Positions 2,957 through 36,225 of a DNA stretch of 36,899 bases are shown piece after piece. Each line of letters opens with the position of its first letter. The stretch's first letter is position 1. Below the pieces are notes generated by a model. It saw nothing but the letters and a program-made list of their open reading frames with translations. It was not told the DNA's origin and did not search any database. The DNA comes from a virus (Duplodnaviria; Caudoviricetes). The stretch is taken from positions 1 to 36,899 of IMG/VR virus record IMGVR_UViG_3300046786_000150. One strand, 5' to 3'. The translations under genes were made by a program, and so were the position numbers.

Positions 2957-3502
2957 ATGAAAACAATCGGCGATAAAATCACAAGTTTTGCAATTACAGG
3001 TGTCAAGCCCGGCGCACTAACACCAGAAGGTGCTTTTGAAACTATTACAGATAAGAGTTTCGAAGGCAAGTGGAAGGTAATCGTTTACTATCCAAAAGAC
3101 TTCACATTCGTATGTCCTACAGAAATCGTAGCATACGATAAGTTGAATGGTGACTTTAGTGATCGTGATGCAGTTCTATTGATCGGCTCTACTGATAATG
3201 AGTTCTGTAAACTAGCCTGGCGTAACGCACACGAAGACCTAAAGAAAACAAATTCTTGGTCATTCGCAGACGTAGCACGTGATGACAATTCACTAGCAGA
3301 ACAACTAGGTATCTTCTATAAGCCAGCTGGCGCGGCACTACGTGCAACCTTCATTGTTGATCCTGACAATGTTATTCAACACGTTACTGTAAACAACTTG
3401 GATGTTGGTCGTAGTCCAGATGAAACATTGCGTATTCTTGACGCATTGCAAACTGGCGAACTATGCCCATGCTCACGTCCAATCGGCGGTGAGACACTAT
3501 AA
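2957..3502 (+). CDS. ahpC: 2-Cys peroxiredoxin (alkyl hydroperoxide reductase C)
   Basis: YPKDFTFVCPTE peroxidatic motif, RATFIVDP, GRS.DE.LR..DALQ, ELCP resolving Cys. Confidence 0.95.
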   Translation: MKTIGDKITSFAITGVKPGALTPEGAFETITDKSFEGKWKVIVYYPKDFTFVCPTEIVAYDKLNGDFSDRDAVLLIGSTDNEFCKLAWRNAHEDLKKTNSWSFADVARDDNSLAEQLGIFYKPAGAALRATFIVDPDNVIQHVTVNNLDVGRSPDETLRILDALQTGELCPCSRPIGGETL

Positions 3503-4152
3503 TGTTAGAAACTATTTGCGACACATTAGTTGAAGCATATAGACGCAACTGGATTACCAGTCGTGATGGCAATGTAAGTATTCGTCATCACGACAGGGAC
3601 CATTTCTATATTACACCTAGTGGCGTGCGTAAACAAACTCTACAGCCCGATCAGTTTAAAAAGATACAGATTGTTAAATGGGATACTGGTATTGATAACG
3701 TACTGGCTTATAACTGGAAAGAGGCATCATATACTGATATTAGTGCTAATCTAAAGCCCAGTGGCGAAATTCCATTGCACTTCGGATTACAAAAGAACAT
3801 GGGACAACATAGTGATGATGTAAGAGTAGTAGTACACTTGCATCCTACGTATTGTGTGGCTGCTATGCATGCGGGCATAGATTTAAGTACTATCGTTAAC
3901 GATTTTCCAGAACTCAGTCGCTACACTAAAGTAGCACCTAACGTAGGAGATGTTCCACCAATTAGTCAAGAGCTTGCTGACCGATGCCATGAAAACTTAC
4001 AATTAGACAACTATGGTAACATCAGTTACGATATTGTAGGTATCAAAGGACATGGTGTTGTAGCTATTGATACTAGTCCATGGCGTGCGTTTGAGCACAT
4101 TGAACGTTTAGAACATATCTGTCAAATCGTATTAGCATCAGGGAAATATTAA
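3502..4152 (+). CDS. Class II aldolase/adducin family metalloenzyme
   Basis: GNVSIR, ITPSG, PSGE.PLH, VVHLHP, GHGVVA motifs. Confidence 0.88.
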   Translation: MLETICDTLVEAYRRNWITSRDGNVSIRHHDRDHFYITPSGVRKQTLQPDQFKKIQIVKWDTGIDNVLAYNWKEASYTDISANLKPSGEIPLHFGLQKNMGQHSDDVRVVVHLHPTYCVAAMHAGIDLSTIVNDFPELSRYTKVAPNVGDVPPISQELADRCHENLQLDNYGNISYDIVGIKGHGVVAIDTSPWRAFEHIERLEHICQIVLASGKY

Positions 4153-4785
4153 ATGAGTTACATTGTAGGATCATTGCCACCTATCAAATGCTTTGTTAAG
4201 AAAGAATTTCTGTATAACTTTGAAAAAGGTCATGGAGAATTAGAACCTGCTATATGGGTAAGTCTTAAGGCATTACGAGGTCAAGTGTTTCGCATAGAAT
4301 CATTGTTGCCTAATTACGGAGCACTGTATGATAAACTTCCTATTCATGCTTATGTATGGCAAGAAAATTATACAGGCAATCTACCCATTGATATTTTACA
4401 ATTGTGGGATTGTATGGGATACCGTTTTACTATTATTGAAAAAATAGGATTACGTAATCTGGGTGTAAAGTTTTTAGGCAAAGACAAAGAATGGCATTAT
4501 GGAACCTACTTGTTTACAGTAGATTTTTGTGCTGACGGTATGGACGTAGACACTGGGTTTACAGAAGTAGCTGAAGAACACAAATCGTTTAACTTTATCA
4601 AGTTAGAGAACGGGCAGTTTGCTTGTCAACCTAACAACAGATGTTTATGGTATGACCAAAGTTTGATTTCTGGAAATGTTAAATTTCCTGATTTCAAAGC
4701 CGCACAAACTATATTCACTGTTGATGGTACTCGCAAGTGGAGTGCAGGGGACGATTGGTTTTATTCAATCGAGGAAAGAAAGTAA
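4153..4785 (+). CDS. Hypothetical phage protein
   Basis: 210-aa ORF abutting the upstream stop; globular composition; no recognised catalytic motif. Confidence 0.75.
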   Translation: MSYIVGSLPPIKCFVKKEFLYNFEKGHGELEPAIWVSLKALRGQVFRIESLLPNYGALYDKLPIHAYVWQENYTGNLPIDILQLWDCMGYRFTIIEKIGLRNLGVKFLGKDKEWHYGTYLFTVDFCADGMDVDTGFTEVAEEHKSFNFIKLENGQFACQPNNRCLWYDQSLISGNVKFPDFKAAQTIFTVDGTRKWSAGDDWFYSIEERK

Positions 4786-4798
4786 TAGGAGATATTAA

Positions 4799-5455
4799 AT
4801 GTTAGAAGCAATTTGGGCCGTTATAGCCATTGTATTGATTGATATTGTATTAGCAGGTGACAACGCACTTGTTATTGGTATGGCAGCAAATCGTTTGCCA
4901 GAACATCAACGAAAAAGTGTAATCTTTTGGGGAACGTTTGGCGCAGTGGCAATTAGATTTATATCTGTGGCGGCACTAACTTACTTGTTATTGATTCCAG
5001 GACTTAGATTGATTGGTGGATTGGCACTAATTTATATCGGATGGAAGTTAGCATTCGCGGATAAGGAACATAGTGTTTCTGCTAAAGAAACATTCTGGGG
5101 AGCTATCAGCACTATTGTTATTGCAGACGCAGTAATGGGCATTGATAATGCATTGGGTATTGCGGCAGCAGCCGGTGGCAATTTTTCAATGGTTATCTTT
5201 GGTTTATTGATTAGTGTTCCAATCATATTGTTTGGTAGTACTGTAATTGCAAAGTTACTAGAAAAGTATCCTGATAGTGTATTCATTGGAAGTTTTGTAT
5301 TGTTTGTAGTAGCACTACAAATGATTTTAAAAGAGCCTTTTGTTGATACACATATTGACCCTGCACACGATTGGGTAGAGCATTCAATCGCTTGGTTAGT
5401 AGCTATTGTATTAACAGCAAAACAATATTATAGAGCAAGAATAAGGAGAAAATAA
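4799..5455 (+). CDS. TerC/YjbE family integral membrane protein
   Basis: DIVLAGDNALVIGMAA..LP..QR, ADAVMGIDNALGIA, GLLISVPII motifs; about 7 hydrophobic segments. Confidence 0.9.
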   Translation: MLEAIWAVIAIVLIDIVLAGDNALVIGMAANRLPEHQRKSVIFWGTFGAVAIRFISVAALTYLLLIPGLRLIGGLALIYIGWKLAFADKEHSVSAKETFWGAISTIVIADAVMGIDNALGIAAAAGGNFSMVIFGLLISVPIILFGSTVIAKLLEKYPDSVFIGSFVLFVVALQMILKEPFVDTHIDPAHDWVEHSIAWLVAIVLTAKQYYRARIRRK

Positions 5456-5456
5456 A

Positions 5457-5975
5457 ATGACAGCATGGGTAGACGCACTTAAAGAATCTAGTATTCCTGA
5501 TTACGCAAAGGATACTAAACTAAACATTGACGCAGTAGTTAAGCGTAGTTCTCTTCCAATAGAAGAAGCAGAGGGTGTAGCATTAGCGGCAGCATTTGCA
5601 ACTGGCAATAGCAAGTTGTGGACTTGGATGGAAAGTCAGATTACTAACAAGACTGAAACACAAGCCGCATTGACTGCAGGAGCATTGATGGCACAAAACA
5701 ATGTATGGTATCCATATGTTGAAATGGCTGACGATGAAAATCTAAAAGGATTACCCGCTCAACTACGTATGAATGCTATCAGCACATCGGGTGGCACAAC
5801 CAAAGAACGCTTTGAGGCATATTCATTAGCCGCAAGCATTGTTGGTAAGTGTCACTTCTGTGTTAAGGCGCACTACGAAGGCTTGAAGAAGATGGGCTAT
5901 ACTGTAGAACAACTACGTGATATCGGTCGCATCGCAAGTGTAATCAATTCAGTGTCAAAAGTAGTAGCAAGTTAA
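5457..5975 (+). CDS. ahpD: Alkylhydroperoxidase AhpD (CMD family)
   Basis: IPDYAKD.KLN, AGALMAQNNVWY, LRMN, SIVGKCHFCVKAH (CxxC). Confidence 0.92.
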   Translation: MTAWVDALKESSIPDYAKDTKLNIDAVVKRSSLPIEEAEGVALAAAFATGNSKLWTWMESQITNKTETQAALTAGALMAQNNVWYPYVEMADDENLKGLPAQLRMNAISTSGGTTKERFEAYSLAASIVGKCHFCVKAHYEGLKKMGYTVEQLRDIGRIASVINSVSKVVAS

Positions 5976-5982
5976 TTGCCCA

Positions 5983-6025
5983 ATAAGTTTGATTATGCTA
6001 AATATTTCTGTATAATCAAACTTAT
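5983..6025. promoter_or_regulatory. 14-bp perfect inverted repeat enclosing a late-type promoter and overlapping a sigma70-like promoter, upstream of the tRNA
   Basis: ATAAGTTTGATTAT (5983-5996) / ATAATCAAACTTAT (6012-6025); CTAAATA 5998-6004; TTGATT..TATAAT (5989-6016). Confidence 0.65.
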
Positions 6026-6030
6026 ACATT

Positions 6031-6106
6031 GCGTCCGTAGCTAAGTGGAACAGCGTGAGCCTCTAAAACTCTGGATGCGTGGGTTCGATTCCCACCGGAC
6101 GCACCA
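6031..6106 (+). tRNA. tRNA with CUA anticodon (amber suppressor), Arg-like body
   Basis: Acceptor GCGTCCG/CGGACGC-A-CCA; D arm GCT..GGA..AGC; T arm GTGGG-TTCGATT-CCCAC. Anticodon stem GAG/CTC places the loop CT-CTA-AA (CTA at 6063-6065, U33 present). The stem has U-U and C-A mismatches. Confidence 0.85.
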
Positions 6107-6127
6107 ATTAACTTAAAGGAAACTAAA

Positions 6128-6700
6128 ATGGCATAGATTGAATTTGCGTGTAAGGAAGTTGTGTTTCACTTCAACAAGAAACACTTGGAAGATCAGACCA
6201 TTCCCATGTGGGTCTTAAAATTTCATGGCGAAACGTATTATGTGAATCATGTGGAATGCAATATTTCATGGTCTACAAAAGAGACACCTGACAACTCACA
6301 TACTAAGGGCAGTATCAAAGTCAAAGAGGTTCTATTAACCATTGATGACGATAACAATGCTAACTTAACCCAACTCACTATATTTGATAAGATTCGTTTG
6401 CGTAATCAAAAATTAGGCATTACTAGAATCATGTTCAGACCACATAGTGATATTCACAAAGCATTACAAAGGAATGAATTTAAACACAGTCCGTTTAAGA
6501 ATATCTTAGGACGATGTGCTACTGGGTTTGTTATCTGTGATTTGCTTGATAAGGCTGAGCTAACATTCGCAACACTGAAATATGACGATTTTAGAGTAGT
6601 TCAGCCCAACGAATCATATTATAAGGAATATGATGACGTTAAAGGTGACCATATCAAAGTTGATTATAGTCATCCGGATACACCCTTTGAATATAGTTGA
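6128..6700 (+). CDS. Hypothetical protein with in-frame TAG at codon 3 (read-through product about 190 aa; alternative GTG start at 6161)
   Basis: SD AAAGGA 7 nt before ATG 6128; ATG GCA TAG ATT GAA TTT GCG TGT AAG GAA GTT GTG is in frame with the 179-aa ORF 6161-6700. Confidence 0.75.
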
Positions 6701-7926: not shown

Positions 7927-8871
7927 TCACCAGATGAAATTCTTTTTATAATACTTGATGATATCTTTGAGATTCTTATCAAAGTTAGCAACGGGTTGCC
8001 ATCCTAAAGACTTTAACTTAGTATCGTCTACACTATAACGAACATCGTGCCCTATACGTTTTACTGTTTTATCTAAGTGACTGTCTGGGTCGCCCTTCAA
8101 GCCCATGATATCAATAATTTTTCTCGCAACTACAATGTTCTGTTCTTCATAATTGCCAGAGATATTGTAGATATCATTAGTGACTCCGCTTTCAATAATC
8201 TTAATAATAGCATTGGCTGTGTCACCTACGTATAGCCAAGTTCTATAAGGTAAACCCTCATCGTGTAATGGAGCTTTCTTGCCCAATGTCAAGTACTTAA
8301 TTGTGTGAGGTATAAACTTCTCTGTGTATTGTCCAATGCCATAGTTATTAGTTGGTCTAACAATAACATATGGAACCTTGTATGTTCTTGCCCATGCTAA
8401 GATAAGCATATCAGCCGCGGCCTTTGTAGCAGAGTATGGATTACTAGGCTTAAGTAAGTGTGATTCATGGTGCGCTCCTGTTACTATATCACCATACACT
8501 TCATCAGTACTAAAGTGTAATAACGTTGGCATCTTAAACTTGAATTTACCTTGAATCAATTTTAGTAAGTGATGCACTCCATCAATGTTACTATGTACAA
8601 ATGCATCACTATTTGCAATACTGTTATCTACGTGTGTTTCGGCAGCAGTGTTTATGATGTAATCACATTCATATAACACATCAATGTCGTTGATATCCTT
8701 TTGTTCAAACACAAAGTTTTCATACTTTTGTAAGTCTGGTAGTAGATTGATATTGGCTGCATATGTTATTTTATCAATACCTCTAACAAACCATCCTTTA
8801 TCCAAACAAGCACGGGTAACATGATACCCGATAAATCCTAAACATCCGGTTACATAAACAATTTTCTTCAT
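7927..8871 (-). CDS. rfbB: NDP(dTDP)-glucose 4,6-dehydratase
   Basis: TGCLGFIG, DKITYA, AAETHVDNSI, STDEVYG, PSNPYSATKA, NNYG..Q..EKFIP, R.GHD.RY. Confidence 0.9.
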   Translation of the reverse strand: MKKIVYVTGCLGFIGYHVTRACLDKGWFVRGIDKITYAANINLLPDLQKYENFVFEQKDINDIDVLYECDYIINTAAETHVDNSIANSDAFVHSNIDGVHHLLKLIQGKFKFKMPTLLHFSTDEVYGDIVTGAHHESHLLKPSNPYSATKAAADMLILAWARTYKVPYVIVRPTNNYGIGQYTEKFIPHTIKYLTLGKKAPLHDEGLPYRTWLYVGDTANAIIKIIESGVTNDIYNISGNYEEQNIVVARKIIDIMGLKGDPDSHLDKTVKRIGHDVRYSVDDTKLKSLGWQPVANFDKNLKDIIKYYKKNFIW

Positions 8872-9662
8872 TTGTATCTCTCTAATCCTATATCAGTTCC
8901 AAGTCTTGGTAAATTTAAACTCTGTAATCTATCACTGTTTCCAGTGTATGCTAGTTCACTATAATCACCAAATGTAATATTGTCACCTGTTAACTTATGA
9001 ATGTTGCAAAATCTTTTTACAAACTCACTAAGTAACATCTTCTCAGGGTACGTTACATTGATGTCCTTATAGTTGGGATCCTCGTTGATATAATATTCAA
9101 CTACTGGAAGTAAGTCCTCTAGAAACAAGTAATCAAAGTACTTATCTTCTAACACCATTGGCGTATTAGATATTATCTTAGGTAACAGTCTACGTTTGGC
9201 TTCAGTAGGGTAAAATACTCCAAACAGTCTGAGAATGTACCAATTATCAGTAACGTATGCGATACGACTACATGCATTTTTGCTCATCCCGTATGTATCT
9301 AATGGATTACATGAAAATAATTCATCTTCTACTACATTATTGAGAGGGCGACTGCGATCAAACTCAGCCCCCGATCCAAAGTGAATAACTCTACCAAATG
9401 CATTACGTGATGCATATACATTCGTAAAAGTACAGAAGTTATCTTTTGCTACTGAAACGTCAGCATCCATTCTACTATCAGAATTGGCAGCAGCATTTAT
9501 AACAACATCAAATGGATGTGTGTTGAAATAGTTAGTTGTGTCAGTATGATTAGATAAGTCAACAACTTGCCTAGTCACGGGAGTCACGTTAAATTTCAGT
9601 GATAGACTATCAGTAAGAAACTTTCCAACTGTGCCGTTTGCACCTAGTACAGCGATTCTCAT
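8868..9662 (-). CDS. NAD-dependent sugar epimerase/reductase (extended SDR)
   Basis: GANGTVG Rossmann motif, FGSGAEF, YGMSK (YxxxK), LRLFGVF. Confidence 0.85.
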   Translation of the reverse strand: MRIAVLGANGTVGKFLTDSLSLKFNVTPVTRQVVDLSNHTDTTNYFNTHPFDVVINAAANSDSRMDADVSVAKDNFCTFTNVYASRNAFGRVIHFGSGAEFDRSRPLNNVVEDELFSCNPLDTYGMSKNACSRIAYVTDNWYILRLFGVFYPTEAKRRLLPKIISNTPMVLEDKYFDYLFLEDLLPVVEYYINEDPNYKDINVTYPEKMLLSEFVKRFCNIHKLTGDNITFGDYSELAYTGNSDRLQSLNLPRLGTDIGLERYK

Positions 9663-10192
9663 TTGCCGTAATCCGGAAACTCTACTAAAATGGTACTGCG
9701 TGTGTTGTTGTATGCTTGTTGATACCCTGGTAATATAGACTCAGGATCAGTTAGTTCAACTATGTCAATGTTCTTACACATCAATCTAAACGCATCAGCA
9801 AAATTACCTTTGTGTTGATCCTGCGGATCTACTGGCATCTCACTTCCCTTAGCAACACGAATGATTACTTTTGGATTACACTTACCATCACTCATTGAAC
9901 TCATCTTGTCTAAGTGATTTACAATCTGATCGGTTGCACACAATAGAAAGTTCCAGCGAGGCACAACACTTACTGGTACAAAGCCATTGATAGCCATTCC
10001 AGTACTAACACCTATTTGAAAATTCTCTGCTACAGGAAATTCCATTTTCTTATTGTTAGGAATCTCAGTCAAACTATCATAGCATCCAGTACCAGCATAA
10101 CAAACTGCTTGTCCAAGAATCATTACATTTTCTTGTGCACCTAACCAGTTCATTGCTTCTTTAAGTTTTTGATTATATAACTGTGTACTCAT
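9659..10192 (-). CDS. TPP-enzyme beta-like subunit (pyrimidine-binding domain of PDH-E1 beta/transketolase type)
   Basis: EFPVAENFQIG...GMAING, F...A.DQIVN, IIRV, QH; lacks the C-terminal domain of full E1 beta. Confidence 0.85.
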   Translation of the reverse strand: MSTQLYNQKLKEAMNWLGAQENVMILGQAVCYAGTGCYDSLTEIPNNKKMEFPVAENFQIGVSTGMAINGFVPVSVVPRWNFLLCATDQIVNHLDKMSSMSDGKCNPKVIIRVAKGSEMPVDPQDQHKGNFADAFRLMCKNIDIVELTDPESILPGYQQAYNNTRSTILVEFPDYGK

Positions 10193-10812
10193 TAGAATTG
10201 TACCCTTACTCCAGCACCTGCATGTGGATATTTTGTATTCTTGTATTTGTAATAGATTAGATGAGTATTCTCATACCAGGTTAAATTCTGATGTGGCAGA
10301 TACCATTTGTTCTCACCCCACATTTCGTGAGTAGGAGTCATTACACTTAGTTCGTTATCTTCTACTACAAATGTTATGGGTAAGTCTTGTGCTACTGCAT
10401 ATTTGTATGCTTCTGTCCAAGCACCTGTTTCTGCACTCATGTCACCAGTCCAACACCATACTCTTTCACTACTACCTTTTAATTTAGCAGCCAATGCAAT
10501 GCCAGTAGCAATACTAGGTATGCCACCTACTATACTTGAACAGATAAATTTATACTCAGGTAAATTCATAACCATGCTTTTACCTGCTAAGATTCTTTCT
10601 TTCAACACATCAGGTGGTATGCCCTTAAGCAGTGCTTGATAATGGTTACGCCATGTACAGCAGATCCAATCATTCTTTACATCAATATTTTCAAAGACAC
10701 GCATGATTTGTTCTTCATTATCTGCATATAAATGAATGGGTGCTTTGATTTTAGCGGCATTGAACATGTCGCCTATTTCTCGTTCAAAGTCAATTAGTTC
10801 TTGTTTGCTCAT
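10192..10812 (-). CDS. TPP-enzyme alpha-like subunit (short PDH-E1 alpha type)
   Basis: PIHL, WRNHYQALLKG, SIVGG, GD(M)...FVVEDN TPP-binding motif. Confidence 0.85.
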   Translation of the reverse strand: MSKQELIDFEREIGDMFNAAKIKAPIHLYADNEEQIMRVFENIDVKNDWICCTWRNHYQALLKGIPPDVLKERILAGKSMVMNLPEYKFICSSIVGGIPSIATGIALAAKLKGSSERVWCWTGDMSAETGAWTEAYKYAVAQDLPITFVVEDNELSVMTPTHEMWGENKWYLPHQNLTWYENTHLIYYKYKNTKYPHAGAGVRVQF

Positions 10813-12128
10813 ACAAATAAACTCATAAATCCATCGACCTTTTCGCCAATGTATTGAATTTGTTCTGGAGTAATTACTGGGCTAGTGCCATGGAAGAATG
10901 TGTTAGTCATTACCATAGTTGCTACAGGGAAGTCATCTTTTGCTTTCTGTGGATCCATGATGTGACTATATGCTGGTTGTAGCATAATATTGCCAGCAAA
11001 GTAAGGACGAGTTTGAATCAAGTTTTCTTCTAAGTAGTCAACAATATCAGTTCGTTTAAACGGTGCGTTCTCTCTGATAGTCAAAGGAAATGCGAACCAA
11101 CTTGGGTCTGATTTATGTTGTGCTCTAGGTAAGTGGAAGAATTCTTCATACTTTTCATAGATATTGAATAGTAGTTGATAGTTACGTCGGCGAAGTGCAT
11201 GTATCTCATCTAACTTCTTAAGTTGTTCTAAGCCCATAGCACCTTGAATTTCAATTGGCTTTAAGTTGTACCCAATCTCATCGTAAACATATTTGTGGTC
11301 AAATATTTCTCCGGGCATAGTAGGGATCCATTCTTTGAATCTATTGCCACATGTACCACACTTTAATTTATTAGCTTCTGGTCCTACACAATAACACCCT
11401 CTACCCCACTCACGGAAACTACGTAGAATGATTTCTTGTTCGTAAGTGTTACAGGCGACATATCCACCCTCACCCATAGTCATATGATGTGCTGGATAGA
11501 AACTACAGCTAGCCATCTCACCAAAGCTGCCCAATGGCTTCCCATCATAAGTACTTCCTAGTGCATCGCAACAATCTTCCAATAAAATAAGATTATATTC
11601 TTTTACTAACTCCATCAACTTGTCCATGTTAGGGGGATTACCTAATACGTGAGCAAACGTAATGATTTTAATATCTGGGTTTTGCTTTAGTGTTTCTTCT
11701 ACTTGGTCTAAGTTAAGATTCAATGTATCTAGTTCAATGTCAACAAACACTGGAGTGAATCCTAACTGTAGTGTAGGATTTAGTGTAGTAGGGAACCCCG
11801 CAATAGGCATTAATACTTTAGTGCCTTTAGGTAAGTTATATCCTCGTTTACTGGTCAATGAAGCCATCATCAACAAATTGCTACTAGACCCACTGTTAGT
11901 AACAATACCGTTATCTTTGCCGAATTGTTTGGGGAACTCTCTTTCAAATTTAAGAGCTTTGTCTCCCATAACTAACCATCCGCCTAGTAAACTCTCTGCG
12001 GCAGATACAAACTCATCTGCATTAAAATATGGTCCAGCATAGTTAACAAAGTCTTTGCCTGCTGTCCACGTTTTGTTTTCTTGTTTTTGCTCAATGTAAG
12101 CACGTATTTGATTTAAGATTTCTTTCAT
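10809..12128 (-). CDS. rfbH: NDP-4-keto-6-deoxyglucose 3-dehydrase (RfbH/DdhC, PMP-dependent)
   Basis: NSGSSSNLL, FPTTLNP, AHVLGNP, EDCCDALGS, SFYPAHHMTMGEGG (His in place of the Schiff-base Lys), WGRGCYC..CGTC, DHKY.Y..IGYNLK. Start reassigned to MKEILNQ (ATGA overlap with the upstream stop). Confidence 0.92.
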   Translation of the reverse strand: MKEILNQIRAYIEQKQENKTWTAGKDFVNYAGPYFNADEFVSAAESLLGGWLVMGDKALKFEREFPKQFGKDNGIVTNSGSSSNLLMMASLTSKRGYNLPKGTKVLMPIAGFPTTLNPTLQLGFTPVFVDIELDTLNLNLDQVEETLKQNPDIKIITFAHVLGNPPNMDKLMELVKEYNLILLEDCCDALGSTYDGKPLGSFGEMASCSFYPAHHMTMGEGGYVACNTYEQEIILRSFREWGRGCYCVGPEANKLKCGTCGNRFKEWIPTMPGEIFDHKYVYDEIGYNLKPIEIQGAMGLEQLKKLDEIHALRRRNYQLLFNIYEKYEEFFHLPRAQHKSDPSWFAFPLTIRENAPFKRTDIVDYLEENLIQTRPYFAGNIMLQPAYSHIMDPQKAKDDFPVATMVMTNTFFHGTSPVITPEQIQYIGEKVDGFMSLFV

Positions 12129-12775
12129 TTGACGATGTATTGACTGTAATGTTGTGCGAATCTGATTCGATTTTCTAATGTGTTTGCTGGCCAATGCATT
12201 GCCCAGTCGCCCGGTTCCCATTGACCACTAGTACCTAGATGATCTATATAATGATAGAGTCCGTTCCATAGTTTATAGTCGTATGAATTCATATGACGTT
12301 GTGGTACAATTTTTATAGTTTGTTGAAAGTGTGGCAAAGTATCTTTCATAATCTTTTGCTCTCCCTCCCAGTACCCATTGAGTGAGGGCAATACATCTTC
12401 TACCATCTTCCAATAACTACGGCTACCTTCGTTATTTTTAATGAGAATACTGTCAGCGTTTATGCCGTTACAGTCTGTTGCAAGAACCATGTTATAATTA
12501 TCGTCTACTTTGTCTTCCATTTTGACTGTGAAGTTAGTAACGATTAAGTCACATCCCGTCCACCAAACCCATTCAAAGTTTCTAGGATCGTTTAACATTC
12601 TGTTGATGAACGCTACCTTTTGTCGTTGTATTGAAGGCATATCACTACCATCTGGAATCTTTTCCATTTCACAGTGATATCCATATTGTTCTGCGTATGG
12701 TATTTTGTTTCCATACCATGTAAGTTTAGCCAATGGCTCATATAAATTGTTATGATGGCTTATGATTGCGTACAT
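12125..12775 (-). CDS. Putative glycosyltransferase (GT34/MNN10-like)
   Basis: EWVWW.GCD.I..N, D.NGINA..ILIKN, EQ, MNSY, W.PGDW..H.P pattern; late-type ATAAATA at 12797-12803 (-). Confidence 0.7.
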   Translation of the reverse strand: MYAIISHHNNLYEPLAKLTWYGNKIPYAEQYGYHCEMEKIPDGSDMPSIQRQKVAFINRMLNDPRNFEWVWWTGCDLIVTNFTVKMEDKVDDNYNMVLATDCNGINADSILIKNNEGSRSYWKMVEDVLPSLNGYWEGEQKIMKDTLPHFQQTIKIVPQRHMNSYDYKLWNGLYHYIDHLGTSGQWEPGDWAMHWPANTLENRIRFAQHYSQYIVK

Positions 12776-12859
12776 TCTATTCCTTAAATGTAGCTATATT
12801 TATTTTGAGGGGGTATCATAGGAATTTTTTCAAAACAACATGATTTATTAAATATGGTT

Positions 12860-13114
12860 ATGGCAATCAACAACTCATTAGATTGGAACAGCGAAGGTAT
12901 TCGTTTACAATACCAGATACAAAGTATTGGGTATAATCCCGACCTTCAAAAAGTGTTTAATAATATAGGTAAGATGGTTGATGAGTTAAGCAAGATTGAA
13001 GTAGTGGCTAGACGAACTCACGTTAACCATTATGCAAAAAACAAAGTAGAGGAAATCAATCAAGCGATTGATAGACTTGAAAAGTTATTGTTAATTGCTA
13101 GATTGATGCAGTAA
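12860..13114 (+). CDS. Hypothetical helical protein
   Basis: ORF; start at 12860 chosen because it lies 5 nt after TTAAATA (12848-12854). Confidence 0.65.
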   Translation: MAINNSLDWNSEGIRLQYQIQSIGYNPDLQKVFNNIGKMVDELSKIEVVARRTHVNHYAKNKVEEINQAIDRLEKLLLIARLMQ

Positions 13115-13933
13115 AGTATCTTTTTTGGGGTATCTGTCCCACCACTTTTTCCAATCAACCAATTCATCTATCTCAGTATCATACTGCATGTGCAGTGCTA
13201 CACTGGGCATAGGTACTAATAAATGATATCCGCGTGTTTGAAATAGTTGATTTATGGTTTTATCTTCCATGTATTCATTTATTTCATGGGTACCCATTTT
13301 ATAAAACAGATCCCAGTTATCTATGATTATTTGATGGAATGTCATAAAACAACTTGCAGTTGCGTTTTGTGTTCTCCAATGACGATGTGGAGTTTTCATT
13401 ATATGACTCTGTTTCCAGACGTTTACTGGAATGTAATATTGTGCAGGGTCATCATATGGAAATATGCTAACTAAGCTGTTAGTGTTCTTTGTAGCAATAG
13501 CCATTACATCTAGCATTTCAGATAATGCTGTAGTATCGTATAAGTAATCATCCTGAGCAAAATAGACAATATCTTTTCCGTAATCTCTACCATGCTCGTA
13601 ACATTTTAGTATACTTGGCATTATACCATAAGTTTCGGTAGGAATAAATTGTGTTTTAAATTTGGCTAAACTTAAATTGTATTTGATATCACTAACAGAT
13701 TCCGGATCACTATGGTCATCATATACTACTAGTTCAAATTCAAATTTATCGTTTACATGTTTTGTTTCCACACAATGGTTGATTGTATCTACTAGACTTC
13801 TAGAGCATCGGCGAGTAACTTCAGCTTTTGAATCGCTACAAAATCTTTTTTGATCTGTTAGTTTGGCATAGACTTGACTATCACCTTTGCTATGCGATTG
13901 TAATATGATTAATACATGAATTTTTTCGTACAT
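13091..13933 (-). CDS. Putative GT-A fold glycosyltransferase
   Basis: VYDDHS, IVYFAQDDYLY (xDD motif), P.PS.ALH; GTAAATA 5 nt before ATG 13933. Confidence 0.65.
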   Translation of the reverse strand: MYEKIHVLIILQSHSKGDSQVYAKLTDQKRFCSDSKAEVTRRCSRSLVDTINHCVETKHVNDKFEFELVVYDDHSDPESVSDIKYNLSLAKFKTQFIPTETYGIMPSILKCYEHGRDYGKDIVYFAQDDYLYDTTALSEMLDVMAIATKNTNSLVSIFPYDDPAQYYIPVNVWKQSHIMKTPHRHWRTQNATASCFMTFHQIIIDNWDLFYKMGTHEINEYMEDKTINQLFQTRGYHLLVPMPSVALHMQYDTEIDELVDWKKWWDRYPKKDTLLHQSSN

Positions 13934-13966
13934 CATTATATTTACATAATAGATGTTACGACAAAA

Positions 13967-27816: not shown

Positions 27817-28191
27817 ATGAGAGCAAACGAATTTATTACTGAAGGTAGGAAAAAAGGTAAACTCACTAAACGTCAAGATGTGGCTACTGTTGGGTTGAAC
27901 GTTTTCCGTGATAAAGAATTTGCCGATAGAATCTATGAATTGAATAGAGTAATGATGGCAGCAGCCTGTGCTGACGGTACAAACCCTATAAATGTAAGTC
28001 ACGAATCCTGGGCTGGACGAATGGATATTGCAGCTCCATACAGTTCACTTGAGCAAAAGATGCTATCACAAGCATATGCCGCAGTTGGTTCGGTTCACTA
28101 TGACTTGAACAAAGGTGATCTACGCAGTCAAGAGTTAAGCGATACTAATAAAGCAAGCCCAGTTGTTGGGTTTAAAGGCTTCAAAAAATAA
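27817..28191 (+). CDS. Hypothetical late protein with capsid-targeting-like N-terminus (MRANEFITE)
   Basis: ATAAATA 6 nt before ATG; N-terminus resembles the T4 internal-protein leader. Confidence 0.7.
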   Translation: MRANEFITEGRKKGKLTKRQDVATVGLNVFRDKEFADRIYELNRVMMAAACADGTNPINVSHESWAGRMDIAAPYSSLEQKMLSQAYAAVGSVHYDLNKGDLRSQELSDTNKASPVVGFKGFKK

Positions 28192-29192: not shown

Positions 29193-29471
29193 ATGAGAGC
29201 AGTTGAATTTATTCGTGATATGTTAGACCTTATTGAAAAGGTTGAATTACAACAAAACACCCAAACTAGTCAGGATTATGCTGACGAGTTTGAGCCTACA
29301 GAAGAAAATCCAAACGATACACAGTATTCAAATTCACCTGATGAAAGAGTTACTAGTGAGAAAGTAATCTTCTCTATAGGTAACGATTTAAACAAACCTA
29401 AGCATCCTAGTGATTTGAGATCAGACACTTTTTCTATGTATCCAAACATGCAATATGATCCTAGGAAGTAA
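29193..29471 (+). CDS. Hypothetical acidic late protein (MRAVEFI N-terminus)
   Basis: 92-aa ORF in an operon. Confidence 0.7.
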   Translation: MRAVEFIRDMLDLIEKVELQQNTQTSQDYADEFEPTEENPNDTQYSNSPDERVTSEKVIFSIGNDLNKPKHPSDLRSDTFSMYPNMQYDPRK

Positions 29472-29473
29472 TT

Positions 29474-29920
29474 ATGGCTAATATTACATTAAATGTTCAA
29501 TACTTAATTAATTCTGCTACGTTCAATGCATACACAGTAGATGACACTACACCAGTTGGAACTTTTCAAACCACACTCGCAACATCTTGGGGTACAGGGG
29601 TACAAAATACTTGGTTCACTTTGAACTATAACGGCACTGCACTGAACCCAGCAAATACGTTGGCTAGTTATTCTATTGCAAATAATGCAACTATACTAAC
29701 TGGAAACAATATTGATAGATTAACTACACTACAAGACAGACAGGATGCTAAGTTATTGATAGCACAGATTCGCAAACAAGCTGGCGGCAACACTGCTGCT
29801 CCTTACTATAGAGCATACAACACATTTGATTTAGATTTATTACCTACTCAATATGTTGGTAATACTGTAGTAGACAATCCAGGACCATTAGAACCTGCTA
29901 GACCTTGGCAAGACTTATAA
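29474..29920 (+). CDS. Protein with N-terminal ubiquitin-like (beta-grasp) domain
   Basis: LNYNGTALNPANTLASYSIANNATI aligns without gaps to ubiquitin [25 protein letters not shown]. Confidence 0.65.
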   Translation: MANITLNVQYLINSATFNAYTVDDTTPVGTFQTTLATSWGTGVQNTWFTLNYNGTALNPANTLASYSIANNATILTGNNIDRLTTLQDRQDAKLLIAQIRKQAGGNTAAPYYRAYNTFDLDLLPTQYVGNTVVDNPGPLEPARPWQDL

Positions 29921-29929
29921 GGATAAATA

Positions 29930-31843
29930 ATGCCATCAGTACCAGATCCAGACCACGTTAAACCATGGTATCTTAGAAACATTACCGAAGCCTTAGCATT
30001 GGATGATGCTAGTGGTAACGTGTATGTCAGGACTGGCTTTACTGGTAATATCGTTATCGAAGGTGATGTTAACATACCGGGAAATATTGATGCACACGTG
30101 GTAGAATTAGGCAATGTAGATATATCACAGAATACTCTACCTGTTACTGTTGAATCCGGTAATATAATTGTTGCAGGTAATGTAGGTATACTAGGTAACG
30201 TTACTGTACTACAAGGAACAAGTCCGTGGGTAGTTACTGGCAATGTAAATGCTAATGTAAGTGGTAATGTAGGAATAATTGGTAACATTGCTGGCATAAC
30301 AAGTCTTCCAAATATTGCAGGTAATGTAGGTATACTAGGAAATGTTAACATAGGCACTATGCCTAGTATTACAGGTAACGTCAATGCTAACGTTAGTGGT
30401 AATGTTGTTATAAGTAGTGGTAACATAAACGCTAATGTATCAGGAAATGTTAATGCTGCTATCACATCATTAGGAAATATTTCAATTGCAGGTAATACAC
30501 TTCCTATTAGTGGCAATGTTGGTATAATTGGAAACGTTAATGTTACACAAGGAACTGATCCTTGGAACATAACCGGTAATGTTGGTATCACTGGTAATGC
30601 TAATGTTATATTAGCTGGTGACGCCAATGTCGTTATTTCAGGATTTAGTGGAGCAACATCAGATGCATTTGGTAGATTGCGTGTAAGTGAACCATACACA
30701 TTATTTGATACACAAGCACGTTACTACGATCATGGTCAGTTTGCTTCAAACGTATCAGGTACTGGTAACGTAGTATACGTTCAAAATCAAAGTAGTTATC
30801 AACTTAATGTAGGTTCTTCGTCAGGTGATAGTGTATTAAGAGAAACATTGAAGCCCTTCCCCTATCAACCAGGTAAGAGTCAACTTACATTAAACACTTT
30901 CTGCATGAACACTCCTAAGACTAATTTACGTCAGCGTGTAGGATTGTTTGATGCTAACGATGGAGTGTATTTTGAAAACGATGGAACATACAACTACTTT
31001 GTAATACGCTCAGGATCTACTGGAGTAGAAGAACGTGTTCGTCAAGATTCTTGGAATGTAGACCGATTGAATCCTTCATATGGATTAAATCCATCTGGAT
31101 ATACTTTACATGTAGATCGCACACAGATTATGTTTGCTGATGTAGAGTGGCTGGGCGTAGGATCAGTGCGTGTGGGATTTGTTATCAATGGTGCTTATGA
31201 AATCTGTCATCAGTTCAACCATGCTAATCAACCAGGTAATACCAAAGTCTATATGACTACTGCGACACTTCCTATTCGTTATGAAATAACTAACACAGGT
31301 GTTACTACTGGCAATAGTATGATGACACAAATTTGTAGTAGTGTTATCAGTGAGGGTGGATTTCAATTGTCAGGTTCTGGTAATCCACGAGCAGCATCAC
31401 ATTTATTAGGATCACCGACTAGATTGCCCAACGATCAAAGTTTCAAACCTGTTATGTCTATAAGATTAAAGAGCACTAACTTAAATGCGGTAGTTATACC
31501 TATTAACTACTCATTGATTCCAGTGGCACAGAGTATATTCCAATACCGTATCTATAAAAAAGCAATAACGTCAGGTGGGAGTTGGGTAAGTTCAGCATCA
31601 GATAGCTCGGTTGAATATAATTTAACGCCTACATCTTTAGTGAGCGGTGATATTGCAGAACAAACATTTTTGAATTCTACTAATCAAAGTGCAGGTTCTC
31701 CTACACAAGTACCCTTTTCATTTACCTATCAATTAGAAAGAGAACCATTCACTGGGGTAGCATATGAATATGTTATTATGATGGCTACTACTGGTACTAA
31801 CCAAGACGTTTATGCTAGTATCGAGTGGCAAGAGATAACCTAA
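29930..31843 (+). CDS. Virion/fibre-like protein with GN(V/I) repeats and a globular C-terminal domain
   Basis: About 200 aa of GNVGI.GNV/GNVNANVS repeats, then a DAFGRLRVS.P.TLFD domain. Confidence 0.75.
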   Translation: MPSVPDPDHVKPWYLRNITEALALDDASGNVYVRTGFTGNIVIEGDVNIPGNIDAHVVELGNVDISQNTLPVTVESGNIIVAGNVGILGNVTVLQGTSPWVVTGNVNANVSGNVGIIGNIAGITSLPNIAGNVGILGNVNIGTMPSITGNVNANVSGNVVISSGNINANVSGNVNAAITSLGNISIAGNTLPISGNVGIIGNVNVTQGTDPWNITGNVGITGNANVILAGDANVVISGFSGATSDAFGRLRVSEPYTLFDTQARYYDHGQFASNVSGTGNVVYVQNQSSYQLNVGSSSGDSVLRETLKPFPYQPGKSQLTLNTFCMNTPKTNLRQRVGLFDANDGVYFENDGTYNYFVIRSGSTGVEERVRQDSWNVDRLNPSYGLNPSGYTLHVDRTQIMFADVEWLGVGSVRVGFVINGAYEICHQFNHANQPGNTKVYMTTATLPIRYEITNTGVTTGNSMMTQICSSVISEGGFQLSGSGNPRAASHLLGSPTRLPNDQSFKPVMSIRLKSTNLNAVVIPINYSLIPVAQSIFQYRIYKKAITSGGSWVSSASDSSVEYNLTPTSLVSGDIAEQTFLNSTNQSAGSPTQVPFSFTYQLEREPFTGVAYEYVIMMATTGTNQDVYASIEWQEIT

Positions 31844-33451: not shown

Positions 33452-35605
33452 ATGCCAAAGAACCAAGATTCATTAAATTCAGACTTGTTTGCTCTACTAC
33501 AAAGTAGAGGATACAGTCCTGTATTATTAGATACTTCAGGAAAAGAAGTCCCTGTACCCGACGAAGCTGAAGTTTTCCAGTTCAATTTTGTCAAAAATGA
33601 CGAAGATTATGGAACCGTAACTCTAAGTATTGACGGATTGCATAAGTTAGTAGTGTACTTTGATGACAAAGTAGCTGATAGTCCTAAAGAACGTTCAGAC
33701 ACCGGAGAAGAAAATTGGTATACTTTATTAAAGCGTCTTAAGAATTTTGCCCGCACTCATCAATTGAGCTTTGAGATTAGAAATACCGATAAACTGAGAT
33801 ATGATATGAAACAACGTGACCACTTAAAACAACTAGATGAAAGCTATCATGCGGTAAGTAAGCATAAGAGCTATAATGATAACATTCCTGAAACAAAGAT
33901 TGTTATTCAGCATAGCAAAGTCATGGAAGAAGGTGAACAACGATTCCGTCATGTTGACAAGATTTTCATTGAAAATATGTTAGGTGAAAGAATTCTAGCA
34001 CCTACAACTAAGCCAGGCATTGCACAAGTTTATGCTCGTCACTTAGCAGAAGGTGGTAAGCCACACGATATTCGTTGGCAACATATTGGTGCAATGGTTG
34101 AAGAATATAGTAAAATGGCTGGGTTCGTTCGTGCTACACGTGGTAATCAATTCAACGAATCAGCACAGCGTTTAGTAAACGAAGGCTTAAATCACTACCA
34201 AAAGTTGCGTGAGTGCTTAAGCAAGATGAGAGGTAAGCGTGGATACAATACTTACTTTGAATCTTGGACACCACCATTAATGGAAGATGAAGAATCAGTA
34301 GACTTAAGTGAAATGTTTATGCAGTCTAGTTTAGATCCACGCATTGAATCTGTAATGCCAATCTTAGGTAAACTAAGCAAGAACTTAGGTGAAGCAAAAG
34401 ACATGGCAGAAGTTATTGCTTTGGAGAACTGGGCAGATAGTATTATGACCCAAGAAGCTAAAGAGGAAGAAGCAGACTACGGTGATGAATATCAAAGTGA
34501 TGTGTTAACGTTAAAACAAAAGGCACAAGCGCAAGAAAAGAAAAAACCAGTTGATATTACTGCACTTGCACGTAGACTAAAATCGGTAATGGATAAGGAT
34601 GAGAAGGAAGTTTCTGAAGAACAGTTTGGTCCAGCTGCAACAGCAGCGATCCAACAAGGTAGACCTCCTAATGAAGTGCACTACGCTGACACTGGTGACA
34701 AGATGAATGCTGAGTTCCATAAAATCGCTATGAGAGAGCAAGGTGTGGCGGAAGAGGCACAAAATAAAGATATGACTGGCCAAACTTGCGAAAAGTGTAA
34801 AAAGGGCAAGTACCAAGAGCGTAGTCAATACGATGATATGGAAGGCAAGGTGACTTGTAAATGTGGTCATAGAGTAGATCGTTGGAAAAAATACAAAGAG
34901 CAAGGTGTGGCAGAAGGATTCTTTGGTATTGACGACAAAATCAAAGGCAAGATTCAGAACATTGTAAGTAGATTGAGTGACGAATACGGTATGTGGGATC
35001 ATAAGGCACAGACATTTACACCTGACGGTCTTGAGCACTTAAAGAGCATTCTAAAGTTTAACGACAAGTATATCAAGTATGCCCTATCTCTTACCAGTAG
35101 AGATTTTGAAGCGGAAGGTGTGGCGGAAGGCGCACCAGAGTTATTAAAAGCAGAGATGCCACTAGTTCGTCATATTGAACAAGAATTAACAAAGATTGGG
35201 TACAAAAAAGGCACCCCAGAATTTAACGCATATTTTAATGATGCAATAAAATTCTATCGTCAGTTTGGTAATTTTGGATTTAATAAAAATCAAGGCGTGG
35301 CGGAAGGCTCCTTAAACGAAATGGATAAGTCTCAGCCATCAAGTGATAGAGGTGGTGAGAGTTCTGGTAATCCATACGCTAAGGGTAGTAAGGCAACGCC
35401 AATCAAGGCTAAAGACTTTGCTAAGAAAGCAGGCAAAGAGCTTGACAAGGCAATGGACAAGGCACATCCTGACTATGATAAACACGAGAAAAAACTTATT
35501 AGCAAAATGAGTAATGCTGAAAAAGCAGACAAGGGTTGGCGTAATCCAAACGTCAAAGAAGGACAAGAAGACCTCGAAGCCATACTAAGAATTATCAAAA
35601 AGTAA
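33452..35605 (+). CDS. Large acidic putative head/internal protein with modular GVAE-delimited C-terminal array
   Basis: 717 aa; ATAAATA at 33426-33432; many (L/I/V)-x-E sites; four (Q/E)GVAE repeats. Confidence 0.8.
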   Translation: MPKNQDSLNSDLFALLQSRGYSPVLLDTSGKEVPVPDEAEVFQFNFVKNDEDYGTVTLSIDGLHKLVVYFDDKVADSPKERSDTGEENWYTLLKRLKNFARTHQLSFEIRNTDKLRYDMKQRDHLKQLDESYHAVSKHKSYNDNIPETKIVIQHSKVMEEGEQRFRHVDKIFIENMLGERILAPTTKPGIAQVYARHLAEGGKPHDIRWQHIGAMVEEYSKMAGFVRATRGNQFNESAQRLVNEGLNHYQKLRECLSKMRGKRGYNTYFESWTPPLMEDEESVDLSEMFMQSSLDPRIESVMPILGKLSKNLGEAKDMAEVIALENWADSIMTQEAKEEEADYGDEYQSDVLTLKQKAQAQEKKKPVDITALARRLKSVMDKDEKEVSEEQFGPAATAAIQQGRPPNEVHYADTGDKMNAEFHKIAMREQGVAEEAQNKDMTGQTCEKCKKGKYQERSQYDDMEGKVTCKCGHRVDRWKKYKEQGVAEGFFGIDDKIKGKIQNIVSRLSDEYGMWDHKAQTFTPDGLEHLKSILKFNDKYIKYALSLTSRDFEAEGVAEGAPELLKAEMPLVRHIEQELTKIGYKKGTPEFNAYFNDAIKFYRQFGNFGFNKNQGVAEGSLNEMDKSQPSSDRGGESSGNPYAKGSKATPIKAKDFAKKAGKELDKAMDKAHPDYDKHEKKLISKMSNAEKADKGWRNPNVKEGQEDLEAILRIIKK
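34739..35307 (+). repeat. Four dispersed in-frame direct repeats, consensus CAAGGTGTGGCGGAAGG
   Basis: Copies start at 34739, 34901, 35114 and 35291, each one base from consensus; periods 162, 213 and 177 nt. Confidence 0.9.
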
Positions 35606-35673: not shown

Positions 35674-36225
35674 ATGTTATTTAGTAGAAAAAATCCCCCA
35701 CTTGGGTTTTATGTTTATGCCTACCTTAGAGAAGATGGCACTCCATACTATATAGGAAAAGGCAAGGACATACGAGCATGGCACACCGACCATACCGTTA
35801 ACTTACCAAAAGACAAAACACGAATAACGATAGTTTCATATGGGTTATTAGAATCATGGGCTTACGCACTAGAACGTCGGTTAATTAGATGGTACGGGAG
35901 AAAAGACAACGGTACTGGTATATTGCGTAACAAAACAGATGGCGGTGAAGGGAGTATAGGAACAGTGTTGAATCCAACTGCGATAGCGAAACAAAAAGAA
36001 ACCAAACGTAGAAACAACTCAAATTCGAACACACCTATTTCCATTATAAAACGAATACAGACAAAGAAAGAAAACGGAACATTAAATAGTGATCCCGTTA
36101 TTAGAGAAAAAATCAGAGCAACACGCCGAGTAAATGGATCTAACGCAAACACACCAGAGTCTATTGCTAAACGGGTTGCTACTAGAAGGGCAAATAGGTT
36201 AGCAAAAATGCTAGTAAATAAATGA
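35674..36225 (+). CDS. GIY-YIG family free-standing homing endonuclease
   Basis: [19 protein letters not shown]...RA, E..LI..YGR, LRN.TDGGEG; basic repeated C-terminal DNA-binding segments. Confidence 0.85.

Follow-up and report, generated by a model that had tools for sequence, protein, structure and literature searches.

Mobile cassette arrays bounded by a recombination site are familiar from integron gene cassettes and shufflons. Among phages, the internal proteins IPI-III and Alt of T4 and its T-even relatives are described as having a capsid-targeting sequence and being processed by gp21 (PMC9026906, PMC12373910, PMC3012670). In RB49 and phi1, the PeSLs are intergenic promoter/stem-loop elements, dispersed short repeats within which crossover shuffles small ORFs; mini-circles were shown, and no recombinase is identified in the available text of that report (PMC2839356). 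Polyvalent proteins are variable, multidomain and virion-associated, have large enzymatic domains and embedded metallopeptidases, and have been proposed to be processed and injected (PMC5512222).

The window considered here, a whole virus record of 36.9 kb, carries a 717-aa gene, P0001 (Table 1), in which a 17-nt repeat matches four times on the + strand, at 34739, 34901, 35114 and 35291, in a within-genome search limited to that fragment. All four copies lie in frame within the ORF; the chance expectation is 0.06, and at least four copies were seen in 0 of 100 shuffles. A sequence-only reading had proposed a cassette array whose repeat may serve both as a recombination or insertion site and as a protease site. 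The four copies that it listed are there, each with one mismatch to its 17-mer (exact copies 0/4), as are the units of 54, 71 and 59 codons between them (spacings of 162, 213 and 177 nt), and with regard to module types, unit 1 does contain CxxC...CxC and unit 3 is a predicted helical hairpin. The stretch preceding copy 1 (34619-34735) is probably a fourth module, module 0, for which no relatives were found in the local sets.

Table 1. Features of the cassette-bearing gene, in window coordinates
Feature	Position	Strand	Remarks
P0001, 717-aa cassette-bearing probable head protein	33452..35605	+	PHROG 13484, PA5oct homologue
Constant domain A, aa 1-130, ends L-D-E	33452..33841	+	E130 invariant; second insertion point in relatives
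Constant domain B, aa 131-330	33842..34441	+	
Probable module 0, after V-S-E	34619..34735	+	Missing in 95%-identical orthologue P0226
Joint copy 1, EQGVAEE	34736..34756	+	Last codon is part of module 1
Module 1, zinc-ribbon-like	34757..34897	+	Also in other genes; free-standing in Variovorax phage V45v66
Joint copy 2, EQGVAEG	34898..34918	+	
Module 2, 64 aa	34919..35110	+	Also in 75 further proteins, most from different gene families
Joint copy 3, AEGVAEG	35111..35131	+	First codons are part of module 2
Module 3, predicted helical hairpin	35132..35287	+	pLDDT 77.5; free-standing homologues start MTAPELLK
Joint copy 4, NQGVAEG	35288..35308	+	Then second candidate site S-L-N-E
C-terminal resident module(s) and conserved C-terminal tip	35309..35602	+	

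As with the T4 internal proteins, there is a gp21-type protease in the relatives, there are [LIVM]-x-E sites, neighbouring genes carry leaders, and the cargo is small, diverse and often basic. The T4 proteins, in contrast, are encoded by separate genes with one leader each, whereas here modules are chained in frame and the codons of the putative cut site are also the DNA joint; no similarity in sequence between the two was seen. The joint resembles the RB49 and phi1 elements in being a dispersed short repeat within which crossover exchanges the adjoining units, but it is 15-21 nt long, coding and in frame (468 of the 472 sites left of 627 after removal of exact duplicates lie in an open frame), and has no shared hairpin. 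P0001 resembles polyvalent proteins in being variable, multidomain and probably virion-associated, yet a Pfam scan matched no family in it, and a repeated DNA joint is not described in the available text on those proteins (PMC5512222). Like integrons and shufflons, the array is bounded by a recombination site; unlike them, it comes with no tyrosine recombinase (0/5 genomes), folded attC-like site or polarity, and its cassettes lie within one ORF. The constant part has a virion-associated homologue in the PA5oct-like jumbo phages, the genus Wroclawvirus (PMC7318152), namely a PA5oct protein whose virion structural annotation cites ESI-MS/MS; however, identity is only 24% and the cassette region has no match there. 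The joint system resembles T4 internal proteins in its cargo and PeSL cassettes in its mobility, and is a member of neither; going by the available text of the sources, it is also neither an integron nor a polyvalent protein (PMC5512222, PMC7824862, PMC13282480, PMC3012670). A literature search, with subscription papers and supplements outside its scope, found no description of such a system.

P0001 matches PHROG 13484, a virion structural protein (E 2.8e-7), and for residues 1-330 there are 1,407 relatives after clustering at 50%. Upstream lies a T4-like terminase large subunit (Pfam), and downstream one GIY-YIG-like ORF followed by an ssDNA-binding protein (PHROG 1192). The GIY-YIG-like ORF, at 35674-36225 +, belongs to a PHROG of unknown function, has what we take to be a GIY-YIG-like N-terminal motif, and has a flank in common with other contigs. 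A fold search with residues 1-331 returned nothing from the PDB at E<=0.001 (the top match, to KA1 domains at Z 6.5, does not rise above noise) and only uncharacterised phage proteins from BFVD; a search with module 3 was uninformative, an Atlas search gave 0 matches, and the predicted folds offered no clue to function. Elsewhere in the window, OmpA-domain protein, Gram-negative porin, AhpC, class II aldolase, TerC and CMD-family genes were observed at 28-648, 1400-2293 and 2957-5975 (+), the phage-borne porin pointing to a Gram-negative host, and a nucleotide-sugar cluster at 7927-13936 (-) comprises two epimerases, a split transketolase-like pair, a DegT aminotransferase and glycosyltransferases. 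A virion protein at 29930-31843 (+) has a long, repetitive Gly-Asn-Val-rich N-terminal region, longer than that of its homologue in the related genome G004 (637 vs 493 aa), and directly before this gene is a 148-aa ORF (29474-29920, +) that weakly matches the ubiquitin family (E 8e-4, below the cut-off).

The repeat is shared across a gene pool and is not peculiar to P0001. Sought in related phages, as the sequence-only reading had suggested, the exact 17-mer was found in an estimated 1,100 or so IMG/VR stretches and in many unrelated genes, including some with unrelated N-termini, and the QGVAEG frame was the longest open frame in 168 of 169 matches. Eight of ten long records contain 5-9 copies, clustered in a few genes. 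Twenty-one positions are conserved, a 15-nt core among them, and none outside this stretch, in a set that was itself chosen by the core. Phages sharing this core have proteins about 50-65% identical; the relatives are phages of 300-360 kb (one record reaches 525 kb), G004 and PA5oct have capsid proteins with 66% identity, and the sequencing runs containing window DNA are labelled freshwater or aquatic; the one RNA run, with a share of 0.06, was left aside. A site derived from hosts was considered and rejected, as 596 Gb of prokaryote genomes contained just 2 stretches with the exact 21-mer; an exact 21-mer does occur in an 8.9-kb contig (CAILDT010000116.1) of a Bacteroidetes bin, possibly a mis-binned phage contig. 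Another genome, G007, was dropped as a site-negative control; it is 93% complete and has no matches to most of the cluster. Among cultured phages the cassette region had one match, to module 1 only, in Variovorax phage V45v66, where no joint lies in the 20 kb around the homologue.

The proposal that constraint acts on the DNA of the joint, and that its GC-rich codons are unusual, was borne out. In the window copies GTG is used in 4/4 and GCG in 3/4 cases, although over the genes of the window GTG makes up 11% of the 713 codons for Val and GCG 9% of the 748 for Ala. A codon-neutral scan, with the peptide EQGVAEG alone fixed, yielded 124 unique sites, 15 of which had GC>=0.5, lacked the codon bias and were left out as chance matches; the 109 AT-rich sites kept had the consensus codons GGT in 106, GTG in 101 and GCG in 99 cases, against same-ORF backgrounds of 0.48, 0.24 and 0.13, so that synonymous positions are conserved in this larger sample as well. 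Consensus codons were also used in 23 of 33 GVAE joints from loci found by the N-terminal domain or in whole genomes rather than by DNA pattern. In contrast, the silent positions of S-L-x-E, a motif that often follows the joint, vary freely (across 21 cases, four different codons serve for Ser and three for Leu). The joint is thus constrained at the DNA level across the gene pool. EQGMAEG and KQD[VM]AEG variants mostly adjoin consensus sites and therefore look like decayed copies, not separate pools, although their position would fit a sequence-reading enzyme too. A Chi-type hotspot was rejected, since the 7-mer excess comes from poly-Gly codons and no genome-wide over-representation independent of coding was seen.

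There is strong support for modules changing partners at this joint, both within and between genes. A comparison of 451 unique sites gave 131 pairs with the same 45 nt upstream, 129 with the same 45 nt downstream and only 2 in which both flanks agree, whereas pseudo-joints placed inside modules gave 112, 80 and 65, and 86, 104 and 77, respectively. Without duplicate removal, 53 of 56 pairs with 90-99% upstream identity differ downstream, counts that are inflated by re-fetched loci (175 identical pairs include re-fetched contigs). Site positions 1-4 travel with the upstream module and positions 20-21 with the downstream one, which explains two of the window mismatches, as copy 1 takes its last codon from module 1 and copy 3 its start from module 2. 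Core variants are shared with neither the upstream flank (1/29, 0/26) nor the downstream flank (0/13, 0/26).

The gain, loss and reordering of modules at the repeat that had been foreseen can also be followed in individual arrays. A 1,742-nt contig of run X7 has 3 differences over 34400-34754 (99% identical), and it changes over exactly at copy 1, where its remaining 100 letters, a loose end assigned to the record by place and length, are the start of another cassette. In P0226, 95% identical over aa 1-400, one different cassette replaces modules 0-3. The same modules recur in other genes, again as anticipated: module 2 was found in 75 other proteins among 100 candidates, of which 2 have the P0001 N-terminal domain, and 48 different upstream neighbours were counted among 74, while P0004 and P0005 have modules 1 and 2 in another gene and in another order. 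Five of eight matches to module 3 are free-standing homologues starting MTAPELLK, short gene calls that may be fragments. Free-standing homologues have conserved residues, and those of modules 1 and 3 suggest that cassettes likely derive from small accessory genes.

Such shuffling could in principle be false, produced by short-read assemblers mis-joining contigs at the repeat: contigs often break at copies, the sequences are all metagenomic, and some short-read contigs may indeed be mis-joined there. However, a single 3,166-nt contig of run X1 spans the whole window gene, arrays differ among near-complete genomes, indels also occur at joints with only 4-8 nt of identity, and the 15-21-nt core is shorter than the usual assembly words, so that we regard an artefact as the explanation with almost no credence. 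In the contigs of seven runs, which drop rare forms, neither precise excision of a window cassette nor a circular single-cassette joint was observed.

Tyrosine and serine recombinases, IS110 transposases and reverse transcriptases were all sought in 5 near-complete genomes as possible drivers of the exchange, and none turned up in any of the 5 (PF00589, PF00239, PF07508, PF00078 and PF01548, 0/5 each, where a divergent family could escape; the PF00589 control gave 14/14), and RecA-like and gp46/47-like genes are present in G004, in a scan of 110 proteins, most of them from 214 shared ORFs. The joint has no inverted symmetry, and no guide-like non-coding copy was found in 4 genomes. Integron-like polarity was not seen (of 351 contexts, 24 vs 16 were one-sided, and boundaries were noisy), and a hairpin was rejected, with z-scores of -1.6, -0.4, -2.6 and -0.2 and no common structure. 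A two-tier G-quadruplex of four GG runs was rejected as well, because module 1 moves together with a joint that lacks the fourth run and the ESVNE linker described below has none. In close orthologues 22 clean indels were identified, 21 of them away from GVAE and 1 at GVAE; in 14 of the 22 both ends carry [LIVM]-x-E (the background for a single end is 0.195), and 17 indels analysed at the DNA level show exact repeats of 2-8 nt around the Glu codon (median 4, background 2). T4 itself is reported to recombine at microhomologies of 6-10 bp (PMC9391042). A second lineage (L409-L532) has arrays delimited by an ESVNE linker with its own cassette pool; at 55 of its array sites one 15-mer occurs in 26 and a doubly different one in 8, no GVAE sites were found in 124 of its loci, and 0 of 66 cassettes are common to both lineages.

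One may consider, as an alternative, a sequence-specific enzyme, be it an unrecognised recombinase, nickase or endonuclease of phage or host, that reads the 15-nt core, with protease cutting retained. The sharpness of a core fixed across phages with such divergent proteins, the failure of core variants to propagate with either flank and the nearly complete unlinking of flanks would all suit such an enzyme, strict non-inheritance of core variants fitting a sequence-reading protein equally well, and many conserved G004 genes have no Pfam family. Yet the five missing recombinase and reverse transcriptase families, the lack of inverted symmetry, shared hairpin, polarity and guide-like copies, the location of most recent orthologue indels at other joints and the unrelated linker of the other lineage make it unlikely, if the most serious competitor. 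Its boldest form, a dedicated unrecognised machine shuffling hundreds of cassettes at a 15-nt protease-coding site, in effect a protein-level integron loading magazines of injected anti-defence proteins, we consider slightly less likely still. The failure to find a dedicated recombinase in five genomes, the use of ordinary [LIVM]-x-E joints and the other lineage's different linker make short-homology recombination the likelier driver, and the odds lean towards ordinary exchange without a dedicated recombinase, in which the commonest joint wins. The proposal of a recombination or insertion site stands insofar as exchange does take place at the repeat; the repeat is not the sole joint, and neither a recombinase nor integron-like polarity was found in these genomes.

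Our preferred model, which we hold to be more likely than not, is that of a freshwater jumbo-phage in-frame joint with short-homology exchange, likely protease cutting and predicted delivery to the host. Its first element is observed, namely a 15-nt core fixed in the DNA across the gene pool at which partners change. Secondly, a T4-type UvsX and gp46/47 system would probably cross over within short identities, with no need of a dedicated recombinase; at any [LIVM]-x-E joint an identity of 4-8 nt would suffice, if only rarely, and the commonest 15-nt joint would work best. We propose that silent positions stay fixed because majority-flanked modules spread, whereas mutated joints are dead ends.

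The third element, which we consider quite probable, is that a gp21-type protease would cut after V-A-E, releasing proteins of 50-70 residues with near-native N-termini, and selection would keep only those exchanges that respect protease sites. T4 gp21 cuts after L/I-x-E, whereas phiKZ proteins are cut after S/A-x-E and those of SPN3US after A-x-E (PMC9026906, PMC5694885). An S77 (T4 gp21-type) prohead protease is encoded in 4/5 related genomes, in G004 at 5677-6309; the gene is absent from the 36.9-kb window fragment. [LIVM]-x-E is enriched in four G004 scaffold/core-like proteins, assigned from position and composition (50 vs 27 expected), and depleted in 182 cassette interiors (68 vs 92 expected), with 125 vs 91 expected in 12 enzymes. 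For V-x-E alone cassette interiors are not depleted (34 vs 28 expected) and scaffolds are modestly enriched (11 vs 8.5). The proposed protease site is thus indirectly backed by the protease of the relatives and by sites that are scaffold-rich and cassette-poor, whereas V-A-E falls outside the strict T4 rule; on balance the joint peptide is likely a head protease cutting site. All of 71 sequences keep E130, between domains A and B, and inserts occur at this point in 37 of 150 orthologues, in 7 of them with GVAE-type joints. Each genome has 8-10 genes with T4-like N-terminal leaders such as MRATEFITE; some modules occur either after such a leader or after GVAE, many other module-2 carriers have leaders, and free-standing module-3 homologues begin where the proposed cut would fall. 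Two small window ORFs, at 27817-28191 (+, MRANEFITE) and 29193-29471 (+, MRAVEFIRD), resemble T4 capsid-targeting leaders at their starts. P0001, which starts MPKNQDSLNS, lacks such a leader, and its targeting to the head may depend on domains A/B or on the conserved tip; it is probably a head protein, a claim of the sequence-only reading that the ESI-MS/MS annotation of the PA5oct homologue supports indirectly. Alternatively, the joint could be a flexible linker only, in a multidomain virion protein that stays whole, the DNA repeat being a mere recombination hotspot, and V at P3 would agree with this. But joints, indel ends and the A/B boundary all end in [LIVM]-x-E with otherwise varied residues, and GVAE interchanges with N-terminal leaders, leaving the linker explanation very improbable.

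As a final element, freed modules would be injected like T4 internal proteins and some would counter host defences, others perhaps being mere DNA-binding filler; we give this step about an even chance. The 261 cassettes of a partial sample fall into 193 families, with a median of 72 codons between sites. Pfam matched 11 of 149 cassette families at E<=0.003, one of them, a nucleotidyltransferase, over the cut-off; zinc ribbons and a GNAT-like domain also occur, and the window modules had no family matches over the cut-off. T4 Ip1-3 inhibit GmrSD (PMC12373910), and by analogy some freed modules may have an anti-defence role. It is also conceivable that modules are exchanged and cut but serve as head-filling or scaffold peptides rather than injected effectors, their diversity being largely neutral or selfish. 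Of 206 short cassettes 137 are net basic (51 are acidic) and many look low in structure, only the lysines of T4 internal proteins are described as contacting packaged DNA (PMC3012670), and T4 core fragments leave the head (PMC9026906). However, the number of families, with the domains just named, the conserved residues of free-standing homologues and the depleted internal sites, which suggest that modules are kept whole, render pure filler doubtful. In G004, leader- or cassette-bearing genes at 183249-199858 (L345) have cytidylyltransferase-like, nucleotidyltransferase, amidoligase and GH19 domains, and this cluster is a candidate for encoding packaged enzymes.

The joint provides a search handle, and the 193 cassette families, nearly all of unknown function, form a library for anti-defence screens. 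The question left open for PeSLs, whether a dedicated recombinase or a by-product of phage recombination is at work (PMC2839356), is made testable by a defined 15-mer. A single short joint that preserves the reading frame, permits exchange and probably also marks the cut could let large phages vary their injected cargo with no need of further promoters or leaders.
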